A stretch of DNA of 63,080 nucleotides, counting the filler. It is 4 parts of 4 records of this genome, joined end to end, with 100 filler letters (N's around TTAATTAATTAA, not from the genome) between each part and the next. Parts side by side here need not be neighbours in the genome. Positions count along the whole stretch, not along the records: positions 1 to 12,743 come from SRR31156797_1511; 3 more parts are not named here. One strand, written 5' to 3'. Shown in pieces: positions 1 through 46,411 of the stretch (position 1 is the first letter of the stretch; every line of letters starts with the position of its first letter). The notes under the pieces were generated by a model that was given only the letters and a program-made list of their open reading frames with translations, was not told where the DNA came from and did no database searches. The translations under genes were made by a program, and so were the position numbers.

Positions 1-88
1 GCATGCAAAAACCTAACCGGACATCACTGATATTTTTATGTTTTACTACGTTGGTTTGAGACATTCTGAAGGGAAGAAGGAAAAGCCC

Positions 89-1120
89 ATGAAAAGACAC
101 AGTCATTTATCAAAAAGCACTCCCAGCCTGTCAGTTGGTTTTATCCTTGTCCCAAACTTTACCTTGATTGCTTTTTCAGGATTCATTGCGGTGCTCAGAC
201 ACGCTGCTGACGAGGGAGACAAAAGCCGCCAGGTTCTTTGCAACTGGACCCTCATGGCGGAAAATCTCTCTCCGATCACCTCCAGCTGCGGCGTTCAAGT
301 CGCTCCCTGGGAAACATTCAGGGATCCCGGAGAATTCGATTATCTGGTCATTGTGGGAGGCCTGCTGCCGGAACGAGGCATGTACGACAAAAAAATCATA
401 AACTATCTCCAAAAGGCAAAGGAAAAAGAAGTGACCCTGGTGGGCCTGTGTACCGGCAGTTTTTACCTGGCAAAAGCGGGGCTCATGACAAACAGAAAAT
501 GCTGTGTGCACTGGTACCATTTCCAGGATTTCATTGACGAATTTCCCACCGCCATACCGGTAACCGATGAAATTTTCATCGAAGACAGGAAGTATATCAC
601 TTGTCCCGGCGGCACGTCGGTCACCGACCTTGCCCTGTTTCTCATCGAACGCCACCTGGGAAAGGACAGGGCCGTTAAATGCCTGCGCCACCTGCTCCTG
701 GACTGGGGACGCACCCACAACCATCCCCAGATGCCCTTTACCAAAAACTACTCCGATATCTCCGACCCAAGGGTACGAAAAGCCATCTTTTTCATGGAAC
801 AGAACCTGAACGAATCCCTAACCGCTACGGATATCGCTCACCATGTGAACACAAGCGCAAGACAGATCGAGCGGCTCTTCAAAATCCATTTGGACACATC
901 ACCCCTGGCCTATTTCAGGAAGGTGCGTCTCTCTTACGGAAAATGGCTCATTGAAAACACGGAAAAATCCATTACCGAGATCGCCTATGAATGCGGTTTT
1001 TCAGACGGTTCCCATTTTTCACGATGTTTTAAATCAAAATTCGGGCAAACACCGGCAGCCGTACGAAAAACCAAGGCAATGTCAAGAGAGCAATTGAACG
1101 CTGGCCCGATACGCCTATAG
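89..1120 (+). CDS. GlxA/GbdR-like AraC-family transcriptional regulator (DJ-1/PfpI sensor domain + AraC HTH)
   Basis: N-terminal GFILVPNFTLIAF...GLCTGSFYLAKAGL...VHWYH amidase-like domain; C-terminal SITEIAYECGFSDGSHFSRCFKSKFGQTP HTH. ATG at 89 follows a purine-rich RBS (ORF track opens at 38). Confidence 0.9.
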   Translation: MKRHSHLSKSTPSLSVGFILVPNFTLIAFSGFIAVLRHAADEGDKSRQVLCNWTLMAENLSPITSSCGVQVAPWETFRDPGEFDYLVIVGGLLPERGMYDKKIINYLQKAKEKEVTLVGLCTGSFYLAKAGLMTNRKCCVHWYHFQDFIDEFPTAIPVTDEIFIEDRKYITCPGGTSVTDLALFLIERHLGKDRAVKCLRHLLLDWGRTHNHPQMPFTKNYSDISDPRVRKAIFFMEQNLNESLTATDIAHHVNTSARQIERLFKIHLDTSPLAYFRKVRLSYGKWLIENTEKSITEIAYECGFSDGSHFSRCFKSKFGQTPAAVRKTKAMSREQLNAGPIRL

Positions 1121-3202
1121 TTTAAACCGCTTTACAAGGGTCTTCAATCCAGTGGCCAATTCGGCCATCCGGGCAGCATCCCTGTTGATCTCTTCACTTC
1201 CGTCGGATACGGTTTTAGCCCCCTTGTTAACATCCATGATATCGCCTGCGATCCGGGATACCCCCCTGTTACTCTCAAGAACCGTATCACTGACATCATT
1301 GACCGATGCCGCCACCGAATTGATGTTGCCGGAGATCTCTTTTGTGACAGCCGATTGTTCTTCGATGGCCGCGGCAATGGTTGTGATCATTTCGTTCACA
1401 TCATTGATAACGGATGAAATTCCGGATATTTCCGTGGTGGTGGACTCCGCCGCCCTCTGGATTCCCGCGATTTTTGATTTGCTCCCGGTGGTCGCGCCCG
1501 CCGTCTGTTTTGCCAGTTCCTTGATCTCTGTCGCCACAATGGCAAACCCCCTTCCTGAACTTCCGGCCCGGGCCGCTTCTATGGTGGCGTTCAGCGCCAG
1601 CAGGTTTGTCTGTTCGGAGATCTCGGTGATGGTTTCGGTGATGGCGCTGATCTCCCGGGCCGCCGTCAGCAACCGGCTGACCTGATCGGTTACCTCCCGG
1701 GCCCGGCGGACCGTCTCGGTACTTATTCTGCTTGCATTTTCAGTATTGCCGGCAATTTCATTCACGGTCGCGTTCATCTCCTCCACGGAAGCGGCCACCG
1801 CCTTGACATTGTCAGAGGCGTTCTCCATGGAGGAAGCGATGTCATTGAAGGTCTTGCTCATGCCGTCGGCATCGGCGGAAAGGGAATCGGATTTCAGGGA
1901 GGTCGCCTGGCTGCTTTCGGCAATCCCGGTCGCCCCACCATGGATGGTGACGGACGCCTCGTAAATCCGCTCGGAGCTGCCGGAAATGTTACCCACCATG
2001 GCGTGAAGATGGTCCACAAACAGATTGAACCATCCGGCCAGCTCACCGGCCTCGTCCGTGGTCCTGACATTGAGCCGCCGGGTCAGGTCCCCGTCCCCCT
2101 GGGCAACTTCCTTCAATCCCCCGGTCACTTCCAGGACAGGTTTCATGAGCATGCCCGAAAACCGGATGGTCAGGGGAACGATCAATACAAGGCAACAGGA
2201 GAAGACCAGCCCCAGCAGCTTGAACATCTGAAACGTATTGTCCCAGATGATCCTGCCCGACCTGAGCACGGCAATGCCGCCTTCATGCCCAACGGCGGAA
2301 CGGAGGGGCAGATACCCCTGGAAATAGGTCTCTTCCCCCAGCCTGACGGTTCCCAGGACCATGGCCCGGCTGTTATCCCCGGCTGTCTCGGCCCTGGCGT
2401 ACCCGGGCAGGCTGCCCCGGACAAGATCTTTTCCGGCAAACAGATTCACATCCAGGCCCGTCATCTGGGTCATTGCGCTGATAAAGGCGCCGTCCAGTTC
2501 CCTGACCGCCACCACGGCCCCTACGACTTCAGATACAAAATCATCGGTCTGCGGATTGTAGCGTTCCGCGGTGACAGGCACACGAGAGGTCAGGGCCATG
2601 CGGCTGCCGATCCTTTTGATCTCCGACACCGGCTGGTCGGCCAATGGTCCGTCAAGGCGGACCGTCAAATCAAATCCGCTGACCCCCTCTGATTTTTGCC
2701 AATCCTTGGTCTCAAGGTTTTCCCCTTGCTCGAACACCATGTAATGGACAGTGGGCCGTGGAAGGGCGCAATAGAAGCCGGAGACAAGCCCGTTGTTCGC
2801 CCTTGCTTCCGAAAAAGCCGTCAGGACTCCGTCCCGGTCATACAGGCCTATCTTCCACAAACCGCAGGAGACAAGAGAATTGAACAGGATATGGGAAAGC
2901 TTTTTATAGGTGGTCCCGGTAATGGATATATCGCCGGTACCGCTGTACTCCATCAAAAATTTTATCTTACCGCCCACCTTGTTCATATCGAGCATCCGGC
3001 CGGCATCAACGGTCATCTTGGTCTGTTTTGCCTTAAGGTCGTTACGGATATTCCGACTGCCGGCTTCCAGGCTATGATAAAGAGCAGTCCGGTTCTGGCG
3101 GTAAAGCACAACGGATACAGCCAATGAAGAGGCCGCCATGACAGTACCGACAACCACCAGCACCCCAAGAGTAATCTTCTTCTTCAAATTCAACCGTCCC
3201 AT
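1115..3202 (-). CDS. Methyl-accepting chemotaxis protein (2 TM, periplasmic sensor, HAMP, MCP signalling domain)
   Basis: ISEQTNLLALNATIEAARAGSSGRGFAIVATEIKELAKQT hairpin signature; HAMP GDLTRRLNVRTTDEAGELAGWFN; two hydrophobic TM segments. Confidence 0.95.
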   Translation of the reverse strand: MGRLNLKKKITLGVLVVVGTVMAASSLAVSVVLYRQNRTALYHSLEAGSRNIRNDLKAKQTKMTVDAGRMLDMNKVGGKIKFLMEYSGTGDISITGTTYKKLSHILFNSLVSCGLWKIGLYDRDGVLTAFSEARANNGLVSGFYCALPRPTVHYMVFEQGENLETKDWQKSEGVSGFDLTVRLDGPLADQPVSEIKRIGSRMALTSRVPVTAERYNPQTDDFVSEVVGAVVAVRELDGAFISAMTQMTGLDVNLFAGKDLVRGSLPGYARAETAGDNSRAMVLGTVRLGEETYFQGYLPLRSAVGHEGGIAVLRSGRIIWDNTFQMFKLLGLVFSCCLVLIVPLTIRFSGMLMKPVLEVTGGLKEVAQGDGDLTRRLNVRTTDEAGELAGWFNLFVDHLHAMVGNISGSSERIYEASVTIHGGATGIAESSQATSLKSDSLSADADGMSKTFNDIASSMENASDNVKAVAASVEEMNATVNEIAGNTENASRISTETVRRAREVTDQVSRLLTAAREISAITETITEISEQTNLLALNATIEAARAGSSGRGFAIVATEIKELAKQTAGATTGSKSKIAGIQRAAESTTTEISGISSVINDVNEMITTIAAAIEEQSAVTKEISGNINSVAASVNDVSDTVLESNRGVSRIAGDIMDVNKGAKTVSDGSEEINRDAARMAELATGLKTLVKRFKL

Positions 3203-3900
3203 ATTTCCCCCGTCGTTTTACTTCCCTTGGTTTTTTTAAGAATCCAGGTCCAAGCCTGCATGAACATGCTGATTCCCCCCCCCAGGCAGAGGTAGATAGC
3301 CACCAGGGGGGAATCCATGGACCAGAAGGCATGGACGCTTCCAAAGGGAATAAGAATGTGTCCCCCGGGGGGAATACTGATGACGGGACCGCCTTTCAGG
3401 TGCCAGGTTCCCCTGCCGGACAGGAGATAAAGGCATTCCGAGGCCGGATGGGCGTGGGGAGGATAGTAAATGTTGGGACTGAGCAGCATCACCCCCACGG
3501 TGACGGTTGAATTGGTAAAAAGGCCGTCCGGACCGATCAATTCAAAGCAGGCGTAGTTATTTACAAAATCCTTGTTGACATTCTGCCCGCGGTATCCGGG
3601 CTCAACCAGCCACCGGAGAAACGGCGTCAGGTCTTCAAGGCATTGAACCAGATCCCGGAATCCCAGATCCCTGGCATTTTCCAGGGCCTTTTCCCAGTGC
3701 CGGACGGCCGATTTCAGCTGGGGCTCAAGCCCGGCGTAGGTGCCGAACTCCTTTTCCAACTGCGTGAATATTTCCATGATTTCATTGTACTCGGGTTCTT
3801 CCGGAAGAACGTCTTCCTTCAACCGCCGCTGAATAATCTCCAGAAACGCTTTTATGGAACCAAACACTTTTTCCTTATCTGACAAATCATTCCCCCCCAT
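3190..3900 (-). CDS. Cupin of the DddL/DddQ-like dimethylsulfoniopropionate lyase family
   Basis: FVNNYACFELIGPDG...VGVMLLSPNIYYPPHAHPASECLYLLSG...VHAF matches the DMSP-lyase cupin pattern (YPxHxHxxxE...H). ATG at 3900 follows a GGAG RBS; the longer ORF to 4143 overlaps the upstream ATPase gene. Confidence 0.7.
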   Translation of the reverse strand: MGGNDLSDKEKVFGSIKAFLEIIQRRLKEDVLPEEPEYNEIMEIFTQLEKEFGTYAGLEPQLKSAVRHWEKALENARDLGFRDLVQCLEDLTPFLRWLVEPGYRGQNVNKDFVNNYACFELIGPDGLFTNSTVTVGVMLLSPNIYYPPHAHPASECLYLLSGRGTWHLKGGPVISIPPGGHILIPFGSVHAFWSMDSPLVAIYLCLGGGISMFMQAWTWILKKTKGSKTTGEIWDG

Positions 3901-3931
3901 GTTAATGATCTCCGCAGTTGACGCCGGCAGG

Positions 3932-4660
3932 TCAAGCCGGCTGCTCGTCGGATATGCCGAGATACATCTTGCGAATATGATCGTTACCCAGAAGGTTGTC
4001 GCTGGCGTCTTCCATGGCGATCCGCCCGTGTTCCATGACATAGGCCCGGTCGGCATATCGAAGGGTGGTATCCACGTTCTGTTCCACAATGAGGACGGTG
4101 ACGTTTTCATCCCTGAGCTTGTCAATGGTTTCGAACACTGCAACCACGTTCTCCGGAGAAAGGCCCATGGAGGGTTCGTCCAGGATGATCATTTTCGGAT
4201 TACACATCAATCCCCGCCCAATGGCCAGCATCTGGCGCTCTCCGCCGCTCATGGTGCCGGCCAGCTGTTTCCGCCGCTCCTTGAGACGCGGAAAGAGATC
4301 GTAGACGTATTCCAGGTTGTTATCGATCCGGCTGCTGTCCTTGATGGTATAAGCACCCATGAGCAGGTTGTCCCTGACCGACATGGACAGAAACAGGTTC
4401 CGCTCTTCGGGAATAAAGGCAAGCCCCTGCTGGACCAGTAGGTGGGACTGCATGCCCGTGATATCTTTTTCCATGAACGACACGGCTCCGTTCATGGGCG
4501 GCAGAATACCGGTAAGGCACTTCAGGATCGTTGTCTTTCCGGCGCCGTTGGGACCGAGAATCGCCACCACTTCGCCCTTTGAAATTTTGATGGAAAGGTC
4601 CCAGATGATCTGAAGATGACCATAGCCCACATCTAAATTCTTTACTTCAAGCATATTCAC
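3932..4660 (-). CDS. ABC transporter ATP-binding protein, LivF-like
   Basis: Walker A GPNGAGKT, MSGGERQMLAIGRGL, LDEPSMGLSP, VEQN. Confidence 0.93.
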   Translation of the reverse strand: MNMLEVKNLDVGYGHLQIIWDLSIKISKGEVVAILGPNGAGKTTILKCLTGILPPMNGAVSFMEKDITGMQSHLLVQQGLAFIPEERNLFLSMSVRDNLLMGAYTIKDSSRIDNNLEYVYDLFPRLKERRKQLAGTMSGGERQMLAIGRGLMCNPKMIILDEPSMGLSPENVVAVFETIDKLRDENVTVLIVEQNVDTTLRYADRAYVMEHGRIAMEDASDNLLGNDHIRKMYLGISDEQPA

Positions 4661-4663
4661 TCC

Positions 4664-5392
4664 TTACAACTTTGCATTGGCCCCAAGATACGCCTTGGAT
4701 ACCACGGGATCTTCCGAGATTTCCCCAGGGGTCCCATCGGCGATTTTCCGTCCGAAATTCAAAACAGCGATCTGGTCACACACGCTCATGATCAATTTCA
4801 TGAGATGCTCCACGATCAGAATCGAAGTGCCGTTGTCCCGGATTCGCAGAATCAGGGATGTGATATCCACAAGCTCCGACGGGGTCAGGCCGGCCGCGAC
4901 CTCATCCAGGAACAGCAGTTTACAGTCCGTTGCAAGCGCCCGTGCAAGTTCCAGCATTTTCAACTGCATGGTATTGAGGTTCTCCGCCACCACATCATGG
5001 CCCATGGGAAACTCTACGAAATCAAGCATTTCAACTGCCCGTCTGCGGGCATCGTGGTCGCGGTGGCTCTTGCCGAACACCGACCCCACCATCACGTTTT
5101 CAAGCACGGTCATCTGGGGAAAGAACTTGACGATCTGGTAGGTCCTTGCCATGCCGAAATGGCAGCAGCGGTTGGCCTTGAATCCGGTAATATCCTTCCC
5201 GTCCAGGATGACCCGGCCCTTGGTGGGGGCATAGGTGCCCGCAATGCAGTTTTGAAACGTTGTCTTGCCCGCCCCGTTGGGACCGATCAAACCGAGAATT
5301 TCTCCCTTTTTCAAAGTGATCGACACATCCTCGACCGCCTTCAGGCCTCCAAAAAATTTACACAACCCCTGTGTTTCTAAAATGATACTCAT
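4664..5392 (-). CDS. ABC transporter ATP-binding protein, LivG-like
   Basis: FGGLKAV, GPNGAGKT, LDEVAAGL, VEHLM, C-terminal VSKAYLG. Confidence 0.93.
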   Translation of the reverse strand: MSIILETQGLCKFFGGLKAVEDVSITLKKGEILGLIGPNGAGKTTFQNCIAGTYAPTKGRVILDGKDITGFKANRCCHFGMARTYQIVKFFPQMTVLENVMVGSVFGKSHRDHDARRRAVEMLDFVEFPMGHDVVAENLNTMQLKMLELARALATDCKLLFLDEVAAGLTPSELVDITSLILRIRDNGTSILIVEHLMKLIMSVCDQIAVLNFGRKIADGTPGEISEDPVVSKAYLGANAKL

Positions 5393-5482
5393 CCATGCCC
5401 TCTATTTTTTCGGATATTTTCGCTCTCCAGCCGGAATACCGGTTGAAACAGGGGACCGGCAGAGCCGGCGCCCCTGAAAACT

Positions 5483-6775
5483 CTACTTCATGTTTGCCGG
5501 GATGGCCAGGTCGGCCGCTTTCCACTCGTCGGGCCAGATGATCTTTGCCTTACCGTCAAAATACTGGGTCACCGGGAAAATGTAGTATCCCTTGCCAACC
5601 ACCGGATCGGGGAAGGTGTCAGGGATGTACTTGTACTCTTCCATGAGCAGGCCGTCAGTAAAGGTGAGCTTGCCGGTCATGACCTGTTCCTCGGCACACC
5701 GCATCAGGGTTTCCGTGGTCAGTTCACCGTATTTTTCCAGGGTGGTTTTCAGCACCTTGATGAAAAACAGGGCCGTGTCGTGGCAGAGCCCGGCAGAGGA
5801 CGCCCCCGGCTCAAATCCGAACCGGGCCTTGAAATCATCCCGGAACTTGCGGGCCTCGGGGGTGGTCCACTGGGGAATCTGGTCCAGCACGTAGTCTGAG
5901 GCGTTTCCGGTCAGTTTGTACCACTCGCCGACCCAGCCGAGACCATCGGAAAGAATCAGGCTCTTGACGCCGATCTCCCGGCTCTGCTTGATAAAAGCGG
6001 ATACGGACGGAGGATCGGACATGGAACCGACGGCCACGGATACGCGTTTACGTTTAATCTTGGAGAGAAGGGGATAAAACTCAGTCTCACCCAACTGCAC
6101 ATACTCTTCCCCGACGACTTCCCACCCGGCTTCCTGAAACTGTTTCTTGACCGCACCGCCAAAGGCCCGTCCCCAGTCGTTGTCAACACCGTACACAAGC
6201 ACTTTCCTGGATTTGGGCTTCCATGTCCCGTTGGCGATGGCGGTCTCAAGGGACTCGATATAGCCGATGCTCAGCTTCTCGGCCAGGGGCCAGGTTTTAC
6301 CAACCCAGTATTTGTACTTTTCGGGATTGGAGTTGTACTTGTCGTTCATGATCTTGCCCGCACCAAAGCTGAAGAAATGGGGCAGCTTATATTTGGAAGC
6401 GACCTCCATGCAGGATGCGGAGACCCAGGAATGCCAGGTATTGTACCCCACATCGATCTTGTCCCGGACAATGGCCTTTTCATAGGCTTTTGCCGCTTTT
6501 TCCGCATCCGACTCCGAATCAACCCATACGAACTCCACCTTGTAATCGCCGATTTTCCAGCCGATTTCATCAAAGGCCATGGTAATGGAATTCTTAAACT
6601 CCTGCCCCACCCGGGAGGCCGGCCCGGTAAAGGGACCGATGGAACCGACCTTGAGGACCTTTTCAGCCGCCGAGGCGGAAAACGCCATGCCTGAAAGTAT
6701 CACGGCCGCCGCTATGACAAATGCAAGTCCCCTGGTTAATATGCCTGATCCAACTCTCTTTGATCTGTTTTTCAT
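5483..6775 (-). CDS. ABC transporter substrate-binding protein (LivJ/HAAT family)
   Basis: Signal peptide ending ASAA; KVGSIGPFTGPASRVG periplasmic-binding-protein type 1 start; lies among Liv-like permease and ATPase genes. Confidence 0.88.
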   Translation of the reverse strand: MKNRSKRVGSGILTRGLAFVIAAAVILSGMAFSASAAEKVLKVGSIGPFTGPASRVGQEFKNSITMAFDEIGWKIGDYKVEFVWVDSESDAEKAAKAYEKAIVRDKIDVGYNTWHSWVSASCMEVASKYKLPHFFSFGAGKIMNDKYNSNPEKYKYWVGKTWPLAEKLSIGYIESLETAIANGTWKPKSRKVLVYGVDNDWGRAFGGAVKKQFQEAGWEVVGEEYVQLGETEFYPLLSKIKRKRVSVAVGSMSDPPSVSAFIKQSREIGVKSLILSDGLGWVGEWYKLTGNASDYVLDQIPQWTTPEARKFRDDFKARFGFEPGASSAGLCHDTALFFIKVLKTTLEKYGELTTETLMRCAEEQVMTGKLTFTDGLLMEEYKYIPDTFPDPVVGKGYYIFPVTQYFDGKAKIIWPDEWKAADLAIPANMK

Positions 6776-6869
6776 CTGAATTTTTCTCCATTATTAGAAA
6801 CGCTGTTGTTTCAATTTATCTGTAAGAAAACTCACCTCAAGCCTTGTTTGGTATTTACGTCCTCCTTTT

Positions 6870-7910
6870 CTAGTGTTTTTTTATTGCCATCTCGCCCGGC
6901 ACATCCACGACATCAACGGCCTCTTGGAACTTCCCTGAAAAACGGCTGAGGATGTTTTCCCACAAGCCGGCCAGCCCCTTGGGATAGTAAATCATGACAA
7001 CGATCATCATGGCTCCGTACAGGATCAAACGAAACTCCATGAGATCCTTCATGAATTCCATGGCGGGAATCATGACCAGGGCGGCGGCAAAAGACCCCCA
7101 GATGGTTCCCCTGCCCCCGATATAGGCAATGGCCATGATCTCAACCGTATGGCTTGTATGCATCAAGGTGGGGGTCAGGATACCGATAAAATGAGCGTAA
7201 AAGCCCCCAAGAAGCCCGGCCAGGGCACAGGACACGGTGAAATTCATTACCTTGTACCGGGTGGCGTCCACCCCTGACGAGGCCGCGGCATCCAGGTCCT
7301 GTCCAATGGCCCTGAAGGCAAGGCCGATGTGGGACCGGGTAATGCAGACAAGCACAATATAGATCACGAGCACCATGACCAGTACGATGTAATAATAGGG
7401 CCAGTTTTTGACGCTCTCGAACAGCAGGGGAATGGTGATGCCGGCATACCCCTGGGTGAGATCCACCATGTTGCCCGTGGCGGACATGAGGGCCAGGGCC
7501 ACGAACCAGGTCATGCACGATGCAAAGATGCCGCCCAGCCGCAGGGTGAGAAGCCCCAGGCCAAACCCGAGAACCGCCGCCACAAGAGCGCCGAAGGGAA
7601 TGGTGATTAAAGGCGACCAGCCCAGTTTCACCACCAGCAGGCCGGAGGTGTATGCCCCCATGCCCATGAAGGCGGCATACCCGAAATTAACGATATTGAT
7701 GAAACCGGCCGTAAAATCAAAGGCCATGGCAAGGCCCGCAAACATGAGGGCCGAGATCAAAAGCCGCAGTATGAACTCATCATGTATGAACAGGGGAATC
7801 AGGGCGATCACCCCAAGAAGCCCCAGCCCCAGGGGACTCAGCCCCAGTTTTGACAGGCGTTGCTTCCACCCGCCGGTTATTGTATTCATGTTGTTTTTTT
7901 CCGTTTCCAT
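6870..7910 (-). CDS. Branched-chain amino acid type ABC permease, LivM-like
   Basis: NFGYAAFMGMGAY, GLAFRAIGQDLDAAASSGV, YIGGRGT; highly hydrophobic. Confidence 0.92.
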   Translation of the reverse strand: METEKNNMNTITGGWKQRLSKLGLSPLGLGLLGVIALIPLFIHDEFILRLLISALMFAGLAMAFDFTAGFINIVNFGYAAFMGMGAYTSGLLVVKLGWSPLITIPFGALVAAVLGFGLGLLTLRLGGIFASCMTWFVALALMSATGNMVDLTQGYAGITIPLLFESVKNWPYYYIVLVMVLVIYIVLVCITRSHIGLAFRAIGQDLDAAASSGVDATRYKVMNFTVSCALAGLLGGFYAHFIGILTPTLMHTSHTVEIMAIAYIGGRGTIWGSFAAALVMIPAMEFMKDLMEFRLILYGAMMIVVMIYYPKGLAGLWENILSRFSGKFQEAVDVVDVPGEMAIKKH

Positions 7911-7934
7911 GGTTAACCTCTCCCTTTGTTATTC

Positions 7935-8837
7935 CTATTCAACCGCACTTTTCACGCCGGAGTTTCCAAACAGTCCGCTGGGCTTGAACAGCAGAATCAG
8001 GATGATGATCGTAAGACTGATCACATCCTGCCACCCGCCGGAGAAATAGGAGTAGGTGATGGTTTCAAGCAGCCCCACGAGAAGGCCGCCGATGATGCTG
8101 CCCCCCACATTTCCCATGCCGCAGAGGATGAGCACGAACCATGACTTGTACAGGGGCTGAACCCCCATGGTGGGATAGGCCGGATTGATGGAAAGAAGGC
8201 AGGCGCCGGCAATACCGGCAAGCAGGGCGCTCAGGGCAAAGGTCAGGGTATGGATATAATTCAGGTCGATGCCCACGAGCCCGGCGCCGGTCTCATCCTG
8301 GGACACGGCCCGGATGGCGCGGCCCGTACGGGTTTTGTTCAGAAAAAAGATCAGGGAGGAGATGGAAATAACGGCAATGAGAAATCCCACTCCCCGGTCC
8401 ATGGAGATGGACATGGAGGAGATGCCACGTATGCGGCCTTCCCAGTACTGGGTAATCCCGTAATAGGTGCTGCCCCAGAAAAGCTTTACCGAATTCTGAA
8501 GGATGATGGAAATGCCCAGGGTAACAAGAAAGGAATTCATCAGCCACTGTTTTTTAGCCCGCTGGCGAAGGGGATAGAAAAACGCCTTTTCAAGGATGGC
8601 GCCAACGATAAAGGTCATCAAAGCCGCAAAAATCAGCGACGGGATGGGGCCAAGATGGAGAAAGGTAAAGGCGAAATACGCAAAATACGCCCCAAGCATA
8701 TAGAGCTCGCCATAGGCAAAATTGGCGATGTTCATCACCCCGAAAACCAGGGATAGCCCGACCGCCATGAGGGCATAGATTCCACCTCGCAATATGGCGG
8801 TGACAAGCAGATCCCACCATTCCACTAACAGTTCCAT
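7935..8837 (-). CDS. Branched-chain amino acid type ABC permease, LivH-like
   Basis: GGIYALMAVGLSLVFGVMNIANFAYGE, TGRAIRAVSQD, FKPSGLFG. Confidence 0.92.
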   Translation of the reverse strand: MELLVEWWDLLVTAILRGGIYALMAVGLSLVFGVMNIANFAYGELYMLGAYFAYFAFTFLHLGPIPSLIFAALMTFIVGAILEKAFFYPLRQRAKKQWLMNSFLVTLGISIILQNSVKLFWGSTYYGITQYWEGRIRGISSMSISMDRGVGFLIAVISISSLIFFLNKTRTGRAIRAVSQDETGAGLVGIDLNYIHTLTFALSALLAGIAGACLLSINPAYPTMGVQPLYKSWFVLILCGMGNVGGSIIGGLLVGLLETITYSYFSGGWQDVISLTIIILILLFKPSGLFGNSGVKSAVE

Positions 8838-8959
8838 AAAACACTCCTTTTAACAGCAATATTGATAATTTATCTTTACAGCGGCAAACGGACAGTCACG
8901 GATTTTCCTGGGCCCGGCCCGTCCTGAACGGATCAGAACGGTCGGCAGGCCCCCTTGTT

Positions 8960-9745
8960 TTATACATGGCCGTAGTAGTCCCTGTGGGCCACGACGGAAT
9001 AGGCATAGTCCAGCAGGGTTCCCCAACTGAAAACGGGCAGGTCGACCCGTTGCTGAACCGCCCTGGCAAAGGGCTGCATGCCCGTGCACTCGAGCATGAT
9101 GGCGCCGACATCCGGGTGTTCCCGGACCACGGTCTCGCAGGTTTTCACCATCTGCGCCTCGGCCTTGTCATAATAAATTTCCGGGCAGTCGGGCCGTTTT
9201 TCAGGATCCCAGAGATTGTCGAATTCCGTGCACCCGTACTCATCCTGGGCGCCGGCGATGACGATGTTCGAATCCGGATCGATGCCCACATTTCTCAGGT
9301 GGGTCTCCGTGAGGAACCGCTTCTGGGCGCAGACAATGCCCACCTTTTTTTTCGGTCCGATGATCTGCTGGATGAAGGGCACCTGGAGAAGGCTGGACAT
9401 GAAAGCCGGGATGTCCACGGCGCCGGCCACATCCTTCTGGAAATAGGCGAAGTAGCCGCATTCAGCCGCAATGGCGCGGCATCCCATACGCTCGAGCTTT
9501 TTTGCGGCCGCAAGGATCGGCTCCCGGCAGGGGGTCTTGTCCTGCTCCCACACCAGGGTGTGGTTGTCCACGCCCTCGCAGATCTCATACTGGATGGGAT
9601 AGGGAAAGGCGCTGGCGTTCCGGACATCCCCGGGGAACCCGGGATAGGCATCGTCCAGCACCATGATGCCGATGCCCATGCCGTAACAGGTGTGATTCTT
9701 TCGTGTCTTGATATAATTGATCGCCATATCACGGTTTAAATACAT
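8960..9745 (-). CDS. Aspartate/glutamate/hydantoin racemase superfamily protein
   Basis: PGDVRNA motif and the two catalytic-type cysteines AECGYF and LECTGM. Confidence 0.8.
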   Translation of the reverse strand: MYLNRDMAINYIKTRKNHTCYGMGIGIMVLDDAYPGFPGDVRNASAFPYPIQYEICEGVDNHTLVWEQDKTPCREPILAAAKKLERMGCRAIAAECGYFAYFQKDVAGAVDIPAFMSSLLQVPFIQQIIGPKKKVGIVCAQKRFLTETHLRNVGIDPDSNIVIAGAQDEYGCTEFDNLWDPEKRPDCPEIYYDKAEAQMVKTCETVVREHPDVGAIMLECTGMQPFARAVQQRVDLPVFSWGTLLDYAYSVVAHRDYYGHV

Positions 9746-9772
9746 GTTTCTCTCCTTTCTGAAATATCAATG

Positions 9773-11197
9773 TCAGGCAACCGCCGCCGGGAGTTCCAGG
9801 AGTTCCGGGGAGATCCCCAGGCCCAGGAGGAAATCCTTCAGTCCGGCCCTGGCGCCGGGATCCAGTTCCGGCTGCCTGTAGCCGCCCGCCATGGCCTCGG
9901 CCATGGCCGTAATGGCGGCCATATTATTCGGATCGTTCAATGTATCCGTACCGGGCCGGTTGTGGCTCAAGGGAGAAATGAACGGCACGGTCCTGCAATG
10001 TTTCATGGTGTGGGGGCTTGTGAGGAACTCACCGCCGGGCCCGGCCTTGCTGATGACGTCAAACCCGAGGGCGTCATCATCCATGGCCGGTCCCGCCATG
10101 AGATAATCGATCATGTCCATGATCTCGAGATCCACGATAAACTGTTCAAAGGACATGGCGCCGTAACTCTCGAGGATTCCGGCGGAGTGAAGAATGAAAT
10201 CGGTTCCGGAATCACAGGCCGACAACATGGAGAGCATGCTCTCGTACCCGCTCTGGACGGAGACGCACCTTGCGTCGTTGCTGGTGCCGCCGTTCCGTGA
10301 AGGCAACCCGTATTTCCGTGCCAGGGCCGAGCAATAGCGGGACTGGATGGCAAACCCGGGGGACCCGATGGAAATGCCCCCGGTGCGAAGGTCGGCGGTT
10401 GTCGCCTGGAGGCCGTAAATCACCGGCGTTCCCGGCCTGACCATCTGGGCGAAGGCGATGGCGGCCAGGGCTTCGGCATTGCCCTGGGCGATATTGCCGG
10501 CAAGGGTGACCGGACCGGTGGCGCCCGCCATGGGCCCGGGGGAAAGGATCAGTGCCTGGCCGTGGCCGGCAACGATCCGGATGGTGTTAAGTGCATTGGC
10601 ATCTACCTGGAGGGGACTGAGGGTGTTCACCAGGGTCAGGATCCTGGGTTTTTCAGTAAAGGACCGACGACCGTTGAAAAGGATCCGGCCCATCTCCATG
10701 ACCCGCTCAACCTCCGTGGCCGTGCCCGGGATTCCCATGATCACCTTATCGGAGAGGTTAACCGTGGCCCAGAGCATGAGGGGCGTGGCAAAGGCCGCCG
10801 GAATATCCCCGGGCTGGACCAGGATGCCGCCGTTGATCTTGAAACGGTCGCTCTGGTGCACAAGCTTCACGAACTTCACATAATCATCGAAACAGGCGGT
10901 CCGTTTCGCGCCGTCCCGGTCAACCATGGAAGGGCAGCCGTAACCGGCGGCATAATGGGAGGTCCCCGCCCCCAGGGTCATGTCGTGTTCGGGATTCCTT
11001 GCAAGCAGGGTAAACCGGCCAGGGGCCTTTCCCACGAAATCCATCACCTGGTCTTCGGTAAAAAAGGCCGTGTCTCCAGATAATTTGACACCGTTCTTCG
11101 CCAGGATCTCCAGGGCCCGGGGATCCAGGAAACGGATCCCCACCCGTTGGAGAATCTCCATGGACGTCCGGTGGATCTTGTCGACGTTCTCTTTCAC
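9773..11197 (-). CDS. MttB (trimethylamine methyltransferase) superfamily corrinoid methyltransferase, no pyrrolysine
   Basis: KIHRTSMEILQRVGI, GATGPVTLAGNIAQGNAEALA, PGTPVIYG, GPGGEFL..HTMKH; uninterrupted ORF. Confidence 0.9.
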   Translation of the reverse strand: MKENVDKIHRTSMEILQRVGIRFLDPRALEILAKNGVKLSGDTAFFTEDQVMDFVGKAPGRFTLLARNPEHDMTLGAGTSHYAAGYGCPSMVDRDGAKRTACFDDYVKFVKLVHQSDRFKINGGILVQPGDIPAAFATPLMLWATVNLSDKVIMGIPGTATEVERVMEMGRILFNGRRSFTEKPRILTLVNTLSPLQVDANALNTIRIVAGHGQALILSPGPMAGATGPVTLAGNIAQGNAEALAAIAFAQMVRPGTPVIYGLQATTADLRTGGISIGSPGFAIQSRYCSALARKYGLPSRNGGTSNDARCVSVQSGYESMLSMLSACDSGTDFILHSAGILESYGAMSFEQFIVDLEIMDMIDYLMAGPAMDDDALGFDVISKAGPGGEFLTSPHTMKHCRTVPFISPLSHNRPGTDTLNDPNNMAAITAMAEAMAGGYRQPELDPGARAGLKDFLLGLGISPELLELPAAVA

Positions 11198-11206
11198 GGG
11201 ATCTCC

Positions 11207-12643
11207 CTATTCGGATTTGCGCCCTTCCAGGTCGGCGGCGATCTTGTCCAGTTGGGCAAGGATCCCGGCGTCCAGCTCCGGCACTTTGTGATTGGCAAGG
11301 ATATCGTCCATTTTTGCGTGGATATTTTTCCTCACCTCGGATTCATCGGGATTTTTCATCTTTCTGCTGAACAGGTCGGGATAAAAGATGTTCCGGAAGT
11401 TTTTCATGGTGTGGGGCTCATTGAGGTATGCACCGGCCGGGCCGACCTTTTCGATCATTTCAAGGACGAGGTCGTCGGTATCCACGGATACGCCCCGGGT
11501 ATAATGTTTCAGCATCTCGATGATCTCGTTGGAGAGCACCACCAGTTCGGGATTCACACTGTTGCAATGATCGGAAACCCCCACGTCATGGATGATGTTG
11601 GCCCGGGACAGCAATGTGGAGAAAATTTCCATGGTGGCCTCGGCGGTGGCCTGCTCATCCAGGAATTTCGCATCGGTGCAGCCGGCGGTGCCGTAAAAGG
11701 GAAGACCGTAGGAATTGACGATCTCGGAGGCCGCCGCCACCAGGAGATGAAACTCCACGGCGCCGTAGCTGCCGATGGTGGTCCGCATGTCCATTATCGA
11801 GGGCATGGCGCCGTAAATAAAGGGAGCGCCTTCGCTAACCAGCTGGGTCAGCACAAGGCCGGTCAGGGCCTCGGCATTGCACTGGGCAAGGGTGCCGGCA
11901 AAACTCAAGGGAGAGGTGCCGCCCATCATGCAATAGGGCATATAAACCACGGGAATCCGGTTCAGGGCGCTGATATACAGTTTTTCCGTGCTCTCCTCGG
12001 GATGGGTCAGGGGCGGAATGGGCTCGCAATAGTTGAAAATAAAGGGTTTTTCCTGGAGCTTGCCAAGGCCCCCGGCCACGACGGCGGCGATATCGATCAC
12101 TTCCTGGAGGGAATCGATGTCGTTGGTGGAAAAATTGATGGTCTTGCTGAAGTGCTTGACCGTCTCGATAAAAGAGATCTGGGTCTGGATATCGGGCCTG
12201 ACATCCTTGGACATGCCGACACTCAGAACAAAATGGATGTTCTCGAGGGCATCGGCCAGGGTACACATGGTCTTTGTATCCTCTTTCAGAAAATTCCTCA
12301 CCTTGCCGGTGCCGGGATCCACAAATTCCAGCTGATCCGAATGGGTACCGAAGTAAACCTGATTCTCCCGGTTGATGGTCATGGCGACCTCGCCGGCCCG
12401 GTTATAGAGCAAAAGCTCCTTTGGCACCGTTTCAAGCGCCTTGTTCACAAGGGCCTCGGGAATTTTGACAAGGCCGTTTTCATCCACCTGGCACCCGGCC
12501 TTGGCAAAGGCCTCGAGCCCCCGCTTGCCGCCCACCTTCATGCCCACCTTTTCCATGAGGTAGATGCTTGCCTCATGGATCTTCTTGATTTTCTCGGGAC
12601 CGAGAATATTAAAATCAATATTTCGCTGTGCTGCTATTCCCAT
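11207..12643 (-). CDS. MttB superfamily corrinoid methyltransferase, no pyrrolysine (second, divergent paralog)
   Basis: KIHEASIYLMEKVG, GGTSPLSFAGTLAQCNAEALTG, GAPFIYG, VGPAGAYLNEPHTMKNFR; ATG at 12643 follows GGAGG. Confidence 0.9.
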   Translation of the reverse strand: MGIAAQRNIDFNILGPEKIKKIHEASIYLMEKVGMKVGGKRGLEAFAKAGCQVDENGLVKIPEALVNKALETVPKELLLYNRAGEVAMTINRENQVYFGTHSDQLEFVDPGTGKVRNFLKEDTKTMCTLADALENIHFVLSVGMSKDVRPDIQTQISFIETVKHFSKTINFSTNDIDSLQEVIDIAAVVAGGLGKLQEKPFIFNYCEPIPPLTHPEESTEKLYISALNRIPVVYMPYCMMGGTSPLSFAGTLAQCNAEALTGLVLTQLVSEGAPFIYGAMPSIMDMRTTIGSYGAVEFHLLVAAASEIVNSYGLPFYGTAGCTDAKFLDEQATAEATMEIFSTLLSRANIIHDVGVSDHCNSVNPELVVLSNEIIEMLKHYTRGVSVDTDDLVLEMIEKVGPAGAYLNEPHTMKNFRNIFYPDLFSRKMKNPDESEVRKNIHAKMDDILANHKVPELDAGILAQLDKIAADLEGRKSE

Positions 12644-12743
12644 CTCTTCCTCCAAAGGGGCAGGCCTGACCTGACGGGCAGGCCTGCCGGACCTGAATTT
12701 CTCTGCTATGTTGCCGTATAAACGCCTTTTACAGGGATTTTAC

Positions 12744-12843
12744 NNNNNNNNNNNNNNNNNNNNNNNNNNNNNNNNNNNNNNNNNNNNTTAATTAATTAAN
12801 NNNNNNNNNNNNNNNNNNNNNNNNNNNNNNNNNNNNNNNNNNN
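12744..12843. other. Artificial contig linker (N44-TTAATTAATTAA-N44)
   Basis: N runs around a six-frame stop cassette; abrupt switch from GC-rich to AT-rich DNA. Confidence 0.98.
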
Positions 12844-37569: not shown

Positions 37570-37669
37570 NNNNNNNNNNNNNNNNNNNNNNNNNNNNNNN
37601 NNNNNNNNNNNNNTTAATTAATTAANNNNNNNNNNNNNNNNNNNNNNNNNNNNNNNNNNNNNNNNNNNN
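37570..37669. other. Artificial contig linker
   Basis: N44-TTAATTAATTAA-N44. Confidence 0.98.
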
Positions 37670-37747
37670 GTTACCAATATCAAAAAAACGGTAACGACGA
37701 TAACGAAATGGTTGGTGTACTTGGAAATATAGGCAGATTGTTTTCAT
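37670..37747 (-). CDS. Glycoside hydrolase family 57, 5' fragment truncated by contig end
   Basis: MKTICLYFQVHQPFRYRRYRFFDIGN contains the GH57 xHQP motif; directly downstream of the glycosyltransferase. Confidence 0.75.
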
Positions 37748-37761
37748 ATCTAATTGATTTA

Positions 37762-39060
37762 TTAGTTAAGCTCCATCTCAACAACAGAGTCATATACTTC
37801 TTTTACTTTTTTAGCTGAGTCTTCCCATTTTAAAGACTCTACTTCACTTTTACCATGATGAATAAACATTTTTGAAAGTGAAGGGTATTTTAGTACACCA
37901 TACATAGCATCTGCCATAGCATCAATGTCCCAAAAGTTTGTTTTGATAGCGTGTTTTAAAATCTCAGCAACACCCGATTGATAGGATATTAAGACCGGAA
38001 CATTACTTTGCATTGCCTCTAAGGGAGAAATACCGAAAGGTTCCGAAACAGATGGCATAACATACAGGTCGCTCATTCGTAACATGGTAAAAACATCTTC
38101 GCCCTTTAAGAAACCGGTAAAATGAAACTTGTCTGTAATTTTTAATTCAGCTGCTCGGCGAATCATTTTTTCCATCATGTCTCCACTTCCAGCCATTACA
38201 AAACGAACATTCTCCATTTTTTGTAGCACTCGATAAGCTGCTTCGATAAAATATTCAGGTCCCTTCTGCATAGTAATCCTACCTAGAAATGTTACGATTT
38301 TTTCGTTAGCATTCTTTTTAATAGGAAGTTCAGTACTCGATTCCTTAGGCTCTACAGCATTGTAAACAGTGACTACTTTATCCGGATGGACACCGTATTT
38401 TTCAATAACTATATTTCGGGTCAGATTACTAACTGTAATGACTTTATCAGCAGCATGTAAACCTCTTCTTTCAATATCGTAAACAGTTGGATTCACACTA
38501 CCTCCACTACGGTCAAAGTCTGTAGCATGTACATGAACTACTAATGGTTTTCCTGAAGCTTCTTTAGCTGCTATTCCAGCAGGATAAGCCAACCAGTCAT
38601 GCGCATGAATTACATCAAAATCATTGTCTTGAGCAATCACACCTGCAACCAACGCATAATTTGAAATCTCATGTAATAAACCTTCTCCATATTTTCCGGT
38701 AAAGTTTATTTTTCCTTCTTCATCTGTTTGAACAATTTTCTTTTCCCCTTCTACTTTAACTTTAGTCAGTTTGTAATAGTCTTCCGGATCTACATAGGGA
38801 ATAATGTGTGTATCCACTTCGATGTAATCCATTTCTTTTTGAAACTTCTTGAAGTCTATTTTTCGCTGGCGAATAGAAATATTATTTGCTCCTGTGAGTT
38901 TAATAGAGCTTTGGTCTTCGTCTCCATAAGCTTTAGGAACTACAAATTGAACATCAAGATCCTTAACATGTGATAAGCCTCTTGTTAAACCGTAACACGC
39001 TGTACCAAGTCCACCTGTAATATGAGGTGGAAACTCCCAGCCAAACATTAATACCCTCAT
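37762..39060 (-). CDS. Glycosyltransferase family 4 (glycogen synthase-like)
   Basis: MFGWEFPPHITGGLG, HAHDW, GRITMQKG, SEPFGISPLEAM. Confidence 0.9.
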   Translation of the reverse strand: MRVLMFGWEFPPHITGGLGTACYGLTRGLSHVKDLDVQFVVPKAYGDEDQSSIKLTGANNISIRQRKIDFKKFQKEMDYIEVDTHIIPYVDPEDYYKLTKVKVEGEKKIVQTDEEGKINFTGKYGEGLLHEISNYALVAGVIAQDNDFDVIHAHDWLAYPAGIAAKEASGKPLVVHVHATDFDRSGGSVNPTVYDIERRGLHAADKVITVSNLTRNIVIEKYGVHPDKVVTVYNAVEPKESSTELPIKKNANEKIVTFLGRITMQKGPEYFIEAAYRVLQKMENVRFVMAGSGDMMEKMIRRAAELKITDKFHFTGFLKGEDVFTMLRMSDLYVMPSVSEPFGISPLEAMQSNVPVLISYQSGVAEILKHAIKTNFWDIDAMADAMYGVLKYPSLSKMFIHHGKSEVESLKWEDSAKKVKEVYDSVVEMELN

Positions 39061-39061
39061 A

Positions 39062-40990: not shown

Positions 40991-41175
40991 TAGCTGTATT
41001 CGTTTACTATGGTTGCAATATGATAAATAAGATTGTTACTGAAATCTATAATTTAAATTGTATGATCAATTGTAAATAAGCTTTTAACAACAGTAATATA
41101 TAAATAAAATATGAAAAAAATATTTAATACTAGTTAAAAAGTATATATTTTAAATATAGTAATATATTAAGAAAA

Positions 41176-42162
41176 TTAAATAATATTATTTCTTAAGAAT
41201 ACTATCTCATCTGAGAAGTCAACGCTGGGGTACTTGACTTTCAGTTCCTCAATCTTTTTCTGTTGTTTCTTAAGAAAATTTTGATGTGAATCCGACGTTG
41301 GATTAATGGCTTTGTGACTAAAGGCCTTTTCTAAATTAAGCATCTCTTTTTTATAATGCAATGTATTTGCAGAAAAAAAACAATTTTCAAATTTTTGCCA
41401 AATGTATTCTACAGCCGTTGGGCTGGGGTGAAGCATGTCGTCCGCGTAAAAACGATAATCTCTTAAGTCATCAGTAAGTAGTTCGTATGCAGGAAAATAA
41501 GTGCATTTTTCAAACTCCATACATAGCTGGTTAATAGCTAAGAGTAGAGTTGATTTACTAATTTGGTTACCATTGGCTCCATCTTTCCAATGTCGAACCG
41601 GACTTACTGTAAAAACAATATTTAGTTCGGGGTTAAAATCAAGTAGTTTTTTAATAAGTTGTTGGTAAGTGGATACAATATTATCAATACTTAAAATATA
41701 ACGATTAAAATCCCTAGCTGGATATTTGTGACAGTTGGATACGATTTTCTGAGTTTTTATTAACTCGTAAACCCATGCGGTACCAAAAGTGATAAATAAG
41801 TACTTTGTCTCTTTTAAATGGGTGTACGAGATCTCCGTAGCTTCGTGAATATTTCTTAGGCACTCTTCTTTGTCAGGATGAGAAAAAGAACCATGATGGT
41901 TAAAGCTTAGCCAAAGCGAATTGTGGTAGTGTAAATTTTTGTCGCTAAATTGTTTTCGTTCAATAATGGCTCTTAATGTATTGCTAACACTCATAGGATT
42001 ATAAATAATACCATAAGGATTAACAATAGCAGGGAGTTTGATTTTTTTGCATTTGTCTCCCATGTTTTCGGCAAAGCATGAGCCGATAAACATGATTTTT
42101 GAATTGAATTCTATTGGGTTTTCCGAGGGCGTTACGGCTATCTCAGTTCTAAATGTTTGCAT
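41176..42162 (-). CDS. GSCFA domain protein (SGNH-like)
   Basis: IGSCFA, TVSPVRH, SKSTL, YFPAYE..DDLRDYRFY..DMLHP. Confidence 0.88.
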   Translation of the reverse strand: MQTFRTEIAVTPSENPIEFNSKIMFIGSCFAENMGDKCKKIKLPAIVNPYGIIYNPMSVSNTLRAIIERKQFSDKNLHYHNSLWLSFNHHGSFSHPDKEECLRNIHEATEISYTHLKETKYLFITFGTAWVYELIKTQKIVSNCHKYPARDFNRYILSIDNIVSTYQQLIKKLLDFNPELNIVFTVSPVRHWKDGANGNQISKSTLLLAINQLCMEFEKCTYFPAYELLTDDLRDYRFYADDMLHPSPTAVEYIWQKFENCFFSANTLHYKKEMLNLEKAFSHKAINPTSDSHQNFLKKQQKKIEELKVKYPSVDFSDEIVFLRNNII

Positions 42163-43027: not shown

Positions 43028-43064
43028 TAAAAAGTAACTGATGTATCAGCAGGTAAAATAAAAG

Positions 43065-44009: not shown

Positions 44010-44013
44010 TGAA

Positions 44014-44331: not shown

Positions 44332-44433
44332 AACTAATAGTATCAAGTATCAATGATCGAGCAGAAAGAAGGTATTCTTTTTACAAGATTAGATACGGTT
44401 TATATTCTTATAACAATTCAAACCTTTTAGGGT

Positions 44434-44856: not shown

Positions 44857-44914
44857 CTTAATATACTGTATGATGATGTTTTATAAGTTTGCAAAGATGC
44901 GAATTTTAAACCCG

Positions 44915-46410: not shown

Positions 46411-46411
46411 A

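Follow-up and report, generated by a model that had tools for sequence, protein, structure and literature searches.

Introduction

Which compound would be consumed through a run of genes that sets two MttB-family methyltransferases beside a racemase-like protein, an amino-acid-type importer, and a cupin resembling dimethylsulfoniopropionate (DMSP) lyases? The question is raised by a locus that spans the whole of contig 1 (SRR31156797_1511), the first of four contigs joined in a stretch of 63,080 bases that is called the window throughout. Betaines and DMSP rank among the major osmolytes of marine sediments, and methanogens require pyrrolysine (Pyl) for non-quaternary methylamines. An earlier interpretation made by a model from the letters alone (hereafter, the sequence-only reading) proposed that the locus unites uptake, chemotaxis, corrinoid demethylation, and a lyase-like step for one DMSP- or betaine-like compound. 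Here, we put at roughly 0.5 the probability that the locus belongs to an anaerobe of Desulfobacteraceae type and forms a catabolic operon serving the uptake and stepwise corrinoid demethylation of an N-methyl, carboxylate-bearing compound of the betaine class. The pair formed by the second, divergent methyltransferase (MttB-B) and the racemase-like gene is the most interesting part of the locus.

Results

The two MttB paralogs of the locus are about 25% identical, belong to separate clades, and are not duplicates of one another. MttB-A matches MtgB of Desulfitobacterium hafniense (PDB 9yce/2qne) with 356 bits, 4yyc with 239 bits, and the Pyl-type MttB 7xcl with 134 bits. At the positions of MtgB Y97, R312, H348, and F356 it carries Y, R, H, and Y, both in the window and in a related locus on a complete uncultured Desulfobacterium chromosome (L001), and Ser occupies the Pyl position. 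Excerpts of the MtgB study (PMC13080624) attribute to Y97 and F356, on the basis of mutagenesis and a ligand-bound structure, the holding of the quaternary nitrogen of glycine betaine, and to R312 and H348 the holding of its carboxylate; they also report that all characterised non-Pyl members of the MttB family retain R312 and that an F356Y variant of MtgB has wild-type kinetics. Judged by its aligned residues, MttB-A shows the minimum motif published for enzymes acting on glycine betaine, and these residues would favour glycine betaine as the substrate. A search of PMC6855144 yielded no usable identity values by which MtgB orthology might be calibrated. The same excerpts present the four residues as a minimum set and not as proof of specificity, and state that MtgB scarcely uses proline betaine (PMC13080624).

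MttB-B scores 214 bits against MtgB and resembles Pyl-type MttB more closely than MttB-A does, with 176 bits against 7xcl (compared with 134) and 353.7 bits on the NCBIfam Pyl-MttB profile (trimeth_pyl, TIGR02369) as opposed to 259.6 bits for MttB-A. However, both profile scores lie below the cut-off of 525, and both open reading frames are uninterrupted and free of in-frame UAG, which makes the test for a Pyl-type enzyme negative for each paralog. At MtgB positions 97, 312, 348, and 356, MttB-B has H, Y, H, and C in place of the betaine tetrad, the Tyr at the R312 position being shared with 7xcl, and it has Cys at MtgB position 317, which aligns with the pyrrolysine of 7xcl. This pattern is a property of the clade. 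Among 119 homologs of 60%–88% identity taken from a table of the best 120, His occurs at the Y97 position in 119/119, Tyr (102) or Phe (17) at R312, Cys (118) or Ser (1) at the Pyl site, His at H348 in 119/119, and Cys at F356 in 119/119. All five signature positions lie along the substrate pocket of MtgB or MttB, and it is a reasonable inference from the alignment that the MttB-B pocket may form a His2Cys2 metal site. A literature search found no description of a metal site in any member of the MttB superfamily.

The racemase-like protein has 1874 homologs at E≤1e-10, and the best 120 of these are all 75%–92% identical to it. Named carriers among the best 120 are Desulfocicer (formerly Desulfobacterium) niacini, whose protein is 89% identical to that of the window, Desulfococcus, Desulfobacula, Desulfosarcinaceae, Sporomusa carbonis, and Maledivibacter halophilus. 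When the best-120 tables of the racemase-like protein and MttB-B were compared by eye for source and for the size of the longest contig, 14 pairs agreed in both, ten of them on contigs of ≤25 kb (4568, 7200, 10636, 11585, 13385, 14242, 17636, 20191, 22683, and 24722 bp). One further pair of equal size (1710 bp) was dropped, because it joins different sources and such a contig could not accommodate both proteins. Homologs of the cupin (P0001), the racemase-like protein (P0156), and MttB-B (P0276) all report a 17,636-bp contig from the same source, and another cupin relative (P0003) and another MttB-B homolog (P0279) both report a 395,967-bp contig. These indirect matches indicate that the pairing of MttB-B with the racemase-like gene extends across Desulfobacterales, Sporomusa, and other anaerobes, well outside this lineage, and that the cupin accompanies the pair in close relatives only. 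The racemase-like gene, and not the cupin, is the widely conserved partner of MttB-B. A search of the literature for reports joining racemase, MttB, betaine, and corrinoid gave no relevant report, returning lactate racemase only.

A search of the PDB by sequence with the racemase-like protein returned spurious chromodomain matches only (E≥0.037). Its AlphaFold2 (AF2) model has a mean predicted local distance difference test score (pLDDT) of 80.2, and Foldseek ranks hydantoin, aspartate, and allantoin racemases and arylmalonate decarboxylase about equally (template modelling score 0.55–0.64), the racemases at E of about 1e-8. Residues C96 and C220, which are invariant in 22 aligned sequences, follow strands 91–94 and 213–218 in the model, and from these positions they are predicted to be the catalytic pair. 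A racemase-superfamily fold and a two-base mechanism are supported.

Distant homologs of the racemase-like protein (33%–39% identity) occur on 160 plasmid records, mostly alphaproteobacterial. In the eight plasmid loci examined, an oxidoreductase that is FAD-dependent or FAD-binding (FAD, flavin adenine dinucleotide) lies within 10 kb in seven and is directly adjacent in four, an amino-acid ATP-binding cassette (ABC) or TAXI-TRAP transporter stands beside the racemase-like gene in six, and an 813-aa FAD-dependent oxidoreductase together with electron-transfer flavoprotein and purU genes is found in two. The pattern of an importer, a racemase-type enzyme, and a C–N oxidoreductase or demethylase thus recurs in aerobes with different parts. 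The closest plasmid-borne homolog (54% identity; positions 62905–63690 of plasmid1 of Planktothrix agardhii NIES-204, locus L003) has glycine amidinotransferase, flavin oxidoreductase, sterol-desaturase-like, O-methyltransferase, and P450 genes as neighbours. It was not used for comparison, as its surroundings look biosynthetic and secondary-metabolite-like, unlike the catabolic contexts.

A single profile scan of genome contigs, for which the cupin was aligned with five relatives to serve as the query, returned two loci. The first is L001, in which the order of genes is MttB-B, MttB-A, racemase-like protein, LivH, LivM, substrate-binding protein (SBP), LivG, LivF, cupin, and convergent regulator. 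Ten of the 11 genes of the window locus recur there in the same order with 73%–92% amino acid identity (regulator 79%, LivF 87%, LivG 92%, SBP 89%, LivM 82%, and LivH 92%), so the linkage for which the sequence-only reading proposed a search in Desulfobacterota does recur in a Desulfobacterium. The missing gene is the one for the methyl-accepting chemotaxis protein (MCP), for which tblastn found no match in L001; DNA homology between the two loci stops just past the cupin stop codon and restarts at the 3' end of the regulator. The place that the sequence-only reading gave to chemotaxis is therefore not sustained in the sole other full locus. That reading had also listed two MttB genes, which are indeed present, while passing over their low identity, their different clades, and the racemase-like gene as a conserved partner. 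The second locus returned by the scan (L002, Ardenticatenaceae) has a cupin of 38% identity with histidine-phosphatase genes as neighbours and without methyltransferases, and was set aside as uninformative.

Two further genes of L001 bear on the system. An additional gene of the Octopine_DH family (PF02317, 111.7 bits) ends about 50 nt before MttB-B; its protein scores 52 bits against CENDH (1bg6), and a PDB search gives distant relatives only. Upstream of MttB-B in the window, the tail of a truncated gene reads ...KGVYTAT*, compared with ...EGVYTEK* in L001, with four consecutive identical residues at the same position, which is suggestive only of the truncated gene being the same opine-dehydrogenase-family gene. 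At the other end of L001, a corrinoid protein of 210 aa (B12-binding_2 and B12-binding domains; 205 bits to MtbC and 190 bits to MtgC) is encoded divergently from the regulator. The sequence-only reading had looked for the cognate corrinoid protein beyond a contig break. The break is real, as contig 1 ends at position 12743, and such a gene does exist just outside the gene run in L001, but at the regulator end and not at the MttB end.

Downstream of the corrinoid gene, L001 (12927–18094 and 18687–20591) holds genes of the DUF1722/2-thiouracil-desulfurase and PNPOx-like types and split AcnX genes, as well as succinyl-CoA:acetate CoA-transferase (642 bits) and aldehyde:ferredoxin oxidoreductase genes. 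The split AcnX genes, about 4.5 kb from the locus, offer a weak lead toward hydroxyproline-type metabolism.

In the PDB, the sequences closest to the cupin are those of DddQ (5cu1, E = 3.5e-18; 4b29, 9e-15; 5jso, 6e-8), and the next match stands at 0.02. Its AF2 model (pLDDT 89.7) likewise finds the DddQ structures 4b29, 5cu1, and 4la2 as the best folds (TMt 0.67–0.78, E from 1e-15 to 1e-13), with generic cupins at about 1e-8. Relatives number five clusters at E≤1e-5 in a search of 5.8 billion proteins, and among 1.84 billion cluster representatives there are six at E≤1e-30 and 1186 at E≤0.001. In an alignment of 147 family members, the window cupin and P0001–P0011 form a 12-member subclade with the motifs 'ECLY/SGRGTWH/HAFW/YLC', outside which stands the L002 cupin with its canonical ExY and W residues.

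The available part of a preprint on the Cupin-DLL superfamily (10.1101/161257) defines six hallmark active-site residues and argues that most members are not DMSP lyases. The window cupin retains the metal-site residues H151, H153, E157, and H192, which are four of the six hallmarks. Its subclade has Leu or Ile (Leu in the window) where 134 of the 147 members have the hallmark Tyr, although a Tyr occupies the next position, and the hallmark Trp, present in 119 of the 147, is replaced by Cys, leaving the six-residue pattern (H, H, E, and Y in motif 1; H in motif 2; trailing W/Y) incomplete. The DddY numbering of the preprint (E274, Y277) disagrees with its printed motif and was not relied on. 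Going by the alignment, these coupled changes set the subclade apart as a predicted separate specificity group. Genes for acrylate use (acuI/acuK/acuN/prpE types) were not found among the Pfam- or NCBIfam-annotated neighbours in contig 1 or L001. Because of the two hallmark changes and the lack of acrylate genes nearby, the cupin is not filed here as a DMSP lyase, and it probably is not one.

The cupin gene follows a Shine-Dalgarno sequence and is one base short compared with L001 in a run of nine G (3275–3283), which puts its last ~30 codons out of frame. As assembled, the tail reads GGGISMFMQAW... and runs to 3190, overlapping the start of the MCP gene; after a +1 shift it reads NQHVHAGLDLDS*, matches the C-terminus of the relatives, and ends at a TAA at 3236–3238. 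Model confidence over the assembled tail is 52–63. The frameshift is either a homopolymer sequencing error or real, and it lies behind the conserved core.

For the regulator, the best NCBIfam equivalog is GbdR (NF052371), and a PDB search gives distant relatives only. It has the two-domain architecture of the GbdR/CdhR/SouR-type GATase1-AraC regulators of Pseudomonas, although its 228.7 bits fall far under the cut-off of 480 and it is thus not an ortholog. All five components of a Liv-type importer are present. The SBP scores 38–41 bits against LivJ and urea SBP equivalogs, where the LivJ-type cut-off is 477, and its nearest solved relatives are urea-binding proteins (44 bits); by these scores, it is not predicted to be a LivJ/K equivalent. 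The MCP has a periplasmic sensor of ~280 aa, in which a CHASE4 match stays below threshold (20.7 compared with 26.2 bits).

All 11 genes named in the sequence-only reading, described there as one co-oriented run with a convergent GlxA/GbdR-type regulator, were recovered at or near the places assigned to them, each above its Pfam cut-off (Table 1). Ten lie tightly spaced on the minus strand with gaps of 3–122 nt, and the plus-strand regulator converges on them. MttB-B most likely begins at the ATG at 12643 and not at the TTG at 12655, because GGAGG precedes the former and relatives are 475–478 aa long. The element at 12657–12695 contains a GGCAGGCCTGCC palindrome inside a short direct repeat (CAGGTC..GGCCTGCCC, two copies). 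Its pattern has two matches in the window, one of them at 12677–12688, compared with 0.09 expected, and L001 has a similar GGCAGGCTCTGCC at the equivalent position (833–845, one match). The element could be an operator or an RNA element. A pattern search did not find it upstream of the L001 corrinoid gene, and thus no shared operator can be claimed. Scans of contig 1 gave five promoter-like sites, compared with 7.9 expected, and 21 terminator-like sites, compared with 15.8 expected; both are at chance level, and the scans do not define operon boundaries. An ESM Atlas look-up returned a generic family name and nothing further.

Table 1. Contigs of the window and features of contig 1, with positions counted along the whole window.
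Feature	Position	Strand	Properties and scores
Contig 1	1–12743		GC (guanine plus cytosine) 0.548
GlxA/GbdR-like AraC-family regulator	89–1120	+	DJ-1_PfpI 52 bits, HTH_18 81 bits (Pfam)
MCP, 695 aa	1115–3202	-	MCPsignal 110 bits, HAMP 36 bits
DddQ-like cupin	3190–3900	-	PF16867 DMSP_lyase 99.4 bits (cut-off 27)
LivF-like ABC ATPase	3932–4660	-	ABC_tran 110 bits; NCBIfam LivF 254 bits (cut-off 441, not reached)
LivG-like ABC ATPase	4664–5392	-	ABC_tran and BCA_ABC_TP_C
Periplasmic SBP, cluster-B type	5483–6775	-	Peripla_BP_6 135.7 bits
LivM-like permease	6870–7910	-	BPD_transp_2 119.7 bits
LivH-like permease	7935–8837	-	BPD_transp_2 133.6 bits
Asp/Glu/hydantoin-racemase-superfamily protein, 261 aa	8960–9745	-	PF01177 34.1 bits (cut-off 31); NF005679 287.5 bits (cut-off 231)
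MttB-A	9773–11197	-	MTTB (PF06253) 399.3 bits (cut-off 25)
MttB-B	11207–12643	-	MTTB (PF06253) 247 bits (cut-off 25)
Palindromic repeat element containing GGCAGGCCTGCC	12657–12695	-	Between the stop of the upstream gene and the MttB-B start
3' end of a further gene, ~12 codons, ...KGVYTAT*	12706–12743 (codons 12706–12741)	-	Cut by the contig end
Contig 2	12844–37569		GC 0.332
Contig 3	37670–56412		GC 0.359
Contig 4	56513–63080		GC 0.522

The four contigs are linked by N44-ttaattaattaa-N44 spacers with stops in all frames (12744–12843, 37570–37669, and 56413–56512), and contig 1 is truncated at both ends. GC is 0.33–0.36 in contigs 2 and 3 as opposed to 0.52–0.55 in contigs 1 and 4, and contig 2 begins with a Porin_10 gene (501 bits) and a gene combining SBP_bac_3 and SLT domains. 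On these grounds, the window probably contains DNA of two organisms, as could result from a contaminated bin. On contig 4 (56821–60906), GlpB (583 bits) and GlpA (570 bits) of an anaerobic glycerol-3-phosphate dehydrogenase are followed by a 265-aa methyltransferase of the methyl-tetrahydrofolate (THF):corrinoid type (NF005719, 345 compared with 259 bits; 199 bits to MeTr 2yci) and then by a DUF6951 gene. The MeTr-like gene could be the missing second methyltransferase (MT2) of the same organism, with a GC content like that of contig 1, although linkage cannot be shown.

Discussion

From the gene content, gene order, protein families, residue patterns, and co-occurrence described above, we infer the following substrates and reactions. 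The Liv-type ABC system would import the compound, and MttB-A would move a first methyl group from its quaternary nitrogen to the Co(I) form of a corrinoid protein, the one encoded beyond the regulator in L001. MttB-B, whose clade lacks the carboxylate-binding Arg and the cation-pi pair, would then demethylate a different and probably non-quaternary donor, the simplest candidate for which is the product of MttB-A, a tertiary or secondary amine. The racemase-superfamily enzyme, the opine-dehydrogenase-family enzyme, and the cupin would process the demethylated amino or imino acid, and the GbdR-like regulator would govern the gene set. An onium or betaine substrate, as the sequence-only reading had supposed, is indicated because the regulator is of GbdR type and one MttB is MtgB-like. 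Uptake and corrinoid demethylation of a betaine-type compound are retained here from that combined interpretation, and its chemotaxis and DMSP-lyase parts are weakened.

The residues of MttB-A and the remaining genes point to different members of the betaine class. Glycine betaine is favoured by the former, but a chiral betaine would better suit the conserved racemase, the two methyl transfers, and the DddQ-type cupin. Proline betaine and hydroxyproline betaine carry exactly two N-methyl groups and have a stereocentre, and their imino-acid product could be oxidised by an enzyme of the opine-dehydrogenase type. A compound of this kind would give every gene a role, and there is a precedent among the neighbours of DddQ. 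In the portion of 10.1101/161257 available, roseobacter dddQ is described as adjoining epimerase-like and dimethylglycine-dehydrogenase-like genes, a set that is read there as serving the catabolism of proline betaine and hydroxyproline betaine.

Several points weigh against a betaine operon of this kind. No MT2 (methyl-corrinoid:THF methyltransferase) or activase (RamA) gene is present in contig 1 or in the 20 kb of L001, and the three-component corrinoid system is accordingly incomplete, contig 1 holding genes for the first methyltransferase (MT1) only and L001 adding the corrinoid protein. Glycine betaine and its demethylation products are achiral, which would leave the linked racemase without an obvious role, and the poor acceptance of proline betaine by MtgB counts against a chiral betaine for MttB-A. 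Moreover, L001 and the window are closely related, and their common gene order may reflect simple descent. The matches in contig size between the racemase-like protein and MttB-B are indirect evidence of linkage, being drawn from reported contig sizes. The cupin is known from a handful of sequences and may be a recent passenger. Lastly, the SBP is distant from every solved or named SBP, and betaine importers usually belong to families other than the Liv-type ABC systems.

Some of these points lend themselves to another explanation, in which the functional unit consists of the two MttB genes and the racemase-like gene alone, the importer serves ordinary amino acids, and the cupin and MCP are lineage-specific passengers. 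The MCP was not found in L001, the family of the cupin is tiny and lineage-restricted as opposed to the widespread racemase-like protein and MttB-B, the 3' end of the cupin gene is frameshifted in the assembly, and the scans for promoters and terminators, being at chance level, set no operon boundaries. However, the genes follow one another on one strand at gaps of 3–122 nt with a Shine-Dalgarno sequence before the cupin, L001 keeps the transporter and the cupin between the racemase-like gene and the regulator, and relatives of the cupin, racemase-like protein, and MttB-B (P0001, P0156, and P0276) all report a 17,636-bp contig from one source. The frameshift, in turn, touches only the tail of the cupin past its conserved core. 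We regard such a mosaic as unlikely.

A catabolic route for sulfonium compounds fares worse. MttB-A would here demethylate DMSP or S-methylmethionine to a thioether (3-methylmercaptopropionate, MMPA, or methionine), MttB-B would carry the thioether onward to a thiol with a His/Cys metal site that activates the sulfur, and the cupin would be a DMSP lyase or provide a lyase-like side route. Zinc sites of Cys and His are typical of thiol and thioether methyltransferases, and the invariant His/Cys/His/Cys pocket of MttB-B resembles them; S-methylmethionine would be a fitting substrate for an importer of the amino-acid type and a racemase, and the cupin matches PF16867 with a DddQ-like fold. Marine Desulfobacterium strains and betaine-grown acetogens reportedly demethylate DMSP to MMPA, on which a literature search gave nothing usable, and the racemase-like protein of Desulfocicer (formerly Desulfobacterium) niacini is 89% identical to that of the window. 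Nevertheless, MttB-A has the full glycine betaine tetrad, which favours an N-betaine, beside a GbdR-like regulator; no acrylate genes occur among the annotated neighbours at either locus; and no MttB-family DMSP methyltransferase appears in the titles and abstract openings of the literature naming MttB and dimethylsulfoniopropionate. The proposal of DMSP as a substrate in the sequence-only reading rested on the cupin, which is altered at two of the six hallmarks (the Tyr and the Trp) and whose nearest solved relative, DddQ, is itself, according to the accessible text of 10.1101/161257, very poor at cleaving DMSP and probably does so promiscuously. A sulfonium substrate is thus quite improbable.

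The betaine-class reading can be set against known systems. In comparison with MtgBCA of D. hafniense (MtgB = DSY3156), the locus has in MttB-A a close homolog of MtgB with four equivalent betaine positions, and a small corrinoid protein of the MtgC/MtbC type adjoins the related locus L001. However, the locus encodes a second, divergent MttB and has no adjacent MT2 (MtgA). Further genes without a counterpart there are those for the racemase-superfamily protein, the DddQ-like cupin, the opine-dehydrogenase-family protein, and the GbdR-like regulator. Its importer is a Liv-type ABC system, whereas other betaine clusters have BCCT-type transporters, such as OpuD in 'Ca. Formimonas warabiya' DCMF, according to the sections of PMC9768040 at hand. 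The same sections describe in DCMF a betaine-induced cluster with two MtgB-type MT1 proteins, one suggested to act on betaine and one on dimethylglycine, and two MT1 paralogs in one betaine cluster are thus common to DCMF and the locus described here (PMC9768040). Unlike contig 1, the DCMF cluster encodes an MT2, corrinoid proteins, and OpuD transporters of its own and passes sarcosine to a selenoprotein reductase; racemase, cupin, and opine dehydrogenase are not mentioned in the sections at hand, and the word 'racemase' has no occurrence in the text (PMC9768040).

With DddQ (Lei et al., 10.1101/161257, as far as its available text goes), the window cupin shares the Pfam family, the fold, the metal residues H, H, E, and H, and a position beside epimerase- or racemase-type and N-demethylase genes. 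It differs in having Leu/Ile for the Tyr two residues after the Glu, Cys for the trailing Trp of motif 2, and a Trp after the last His (HAFW), and the accompanying racemase and demethylases belong to other, oxygen-independent families. By analogy, the trio of functions at roseobacter dddQ loci appears to be mirrored here by different protein families. The preprint text further gives the DMSP-lyase activity of DddQ as extremely low, and the Tawfik group argues there that it is promiscuous (10.1101/161257).

The individual protein families and the demethylation of betaine by MtgB-type systems are known already. As far as our literature searches reach, the signature of the MttB-B clade and its conserved pairing with a racemase-superfamily protein are new, as is their union with a DddQ-type cupin, a Liv-type importer, and an opine-dehydrogenase-family gene in Desulfobacteraceae. 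A bolder proposal, which we advance tentatively and consider doubtful in its entirety, is that MttB-B represents an uncharacterised and widespread clade in which a His/Cys/His/Cys site, with Cys at the very place of pyrrolysine, replaces both pyrrolysine and the cation-pi/Arg pocket. Such a site would permit metal-assisted, Pyl-independent demethylation of non-quaternary donors by an enzyme in a fixed pair with the racemase-like protein. The donor might be dimethylglycine, sarcosine, or N-methylproline, or else a thioether (MMPA or methionine, for instance). In this lineage, an MtgB-type enzyme, an importer, and a DddQ-like cupin would have come to complement the pair, allowing the complete anaerobic use of betaine or sulfonium osmolytes.

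A corrinoid enzyme specific for dimethylglycine or sarcosine has not yet been identified according to the excerpted text of PMC9768040, and our literature search found none. The MttB-B clade, with its distinct His/Cys pocket and its link to a racemase-like protein in sulfate reducers and acetogens, is a concrete candidate for these later methyl removals. In addition, the locus would represent a second and oxygen-free setting in which a DddQ-type cupin stands beside a racemase and N-demethylases, which bears on the function of DddQ-like proteins and advises caution against scoring such cupin genes as DMSP lyases in sediment metagenomes.

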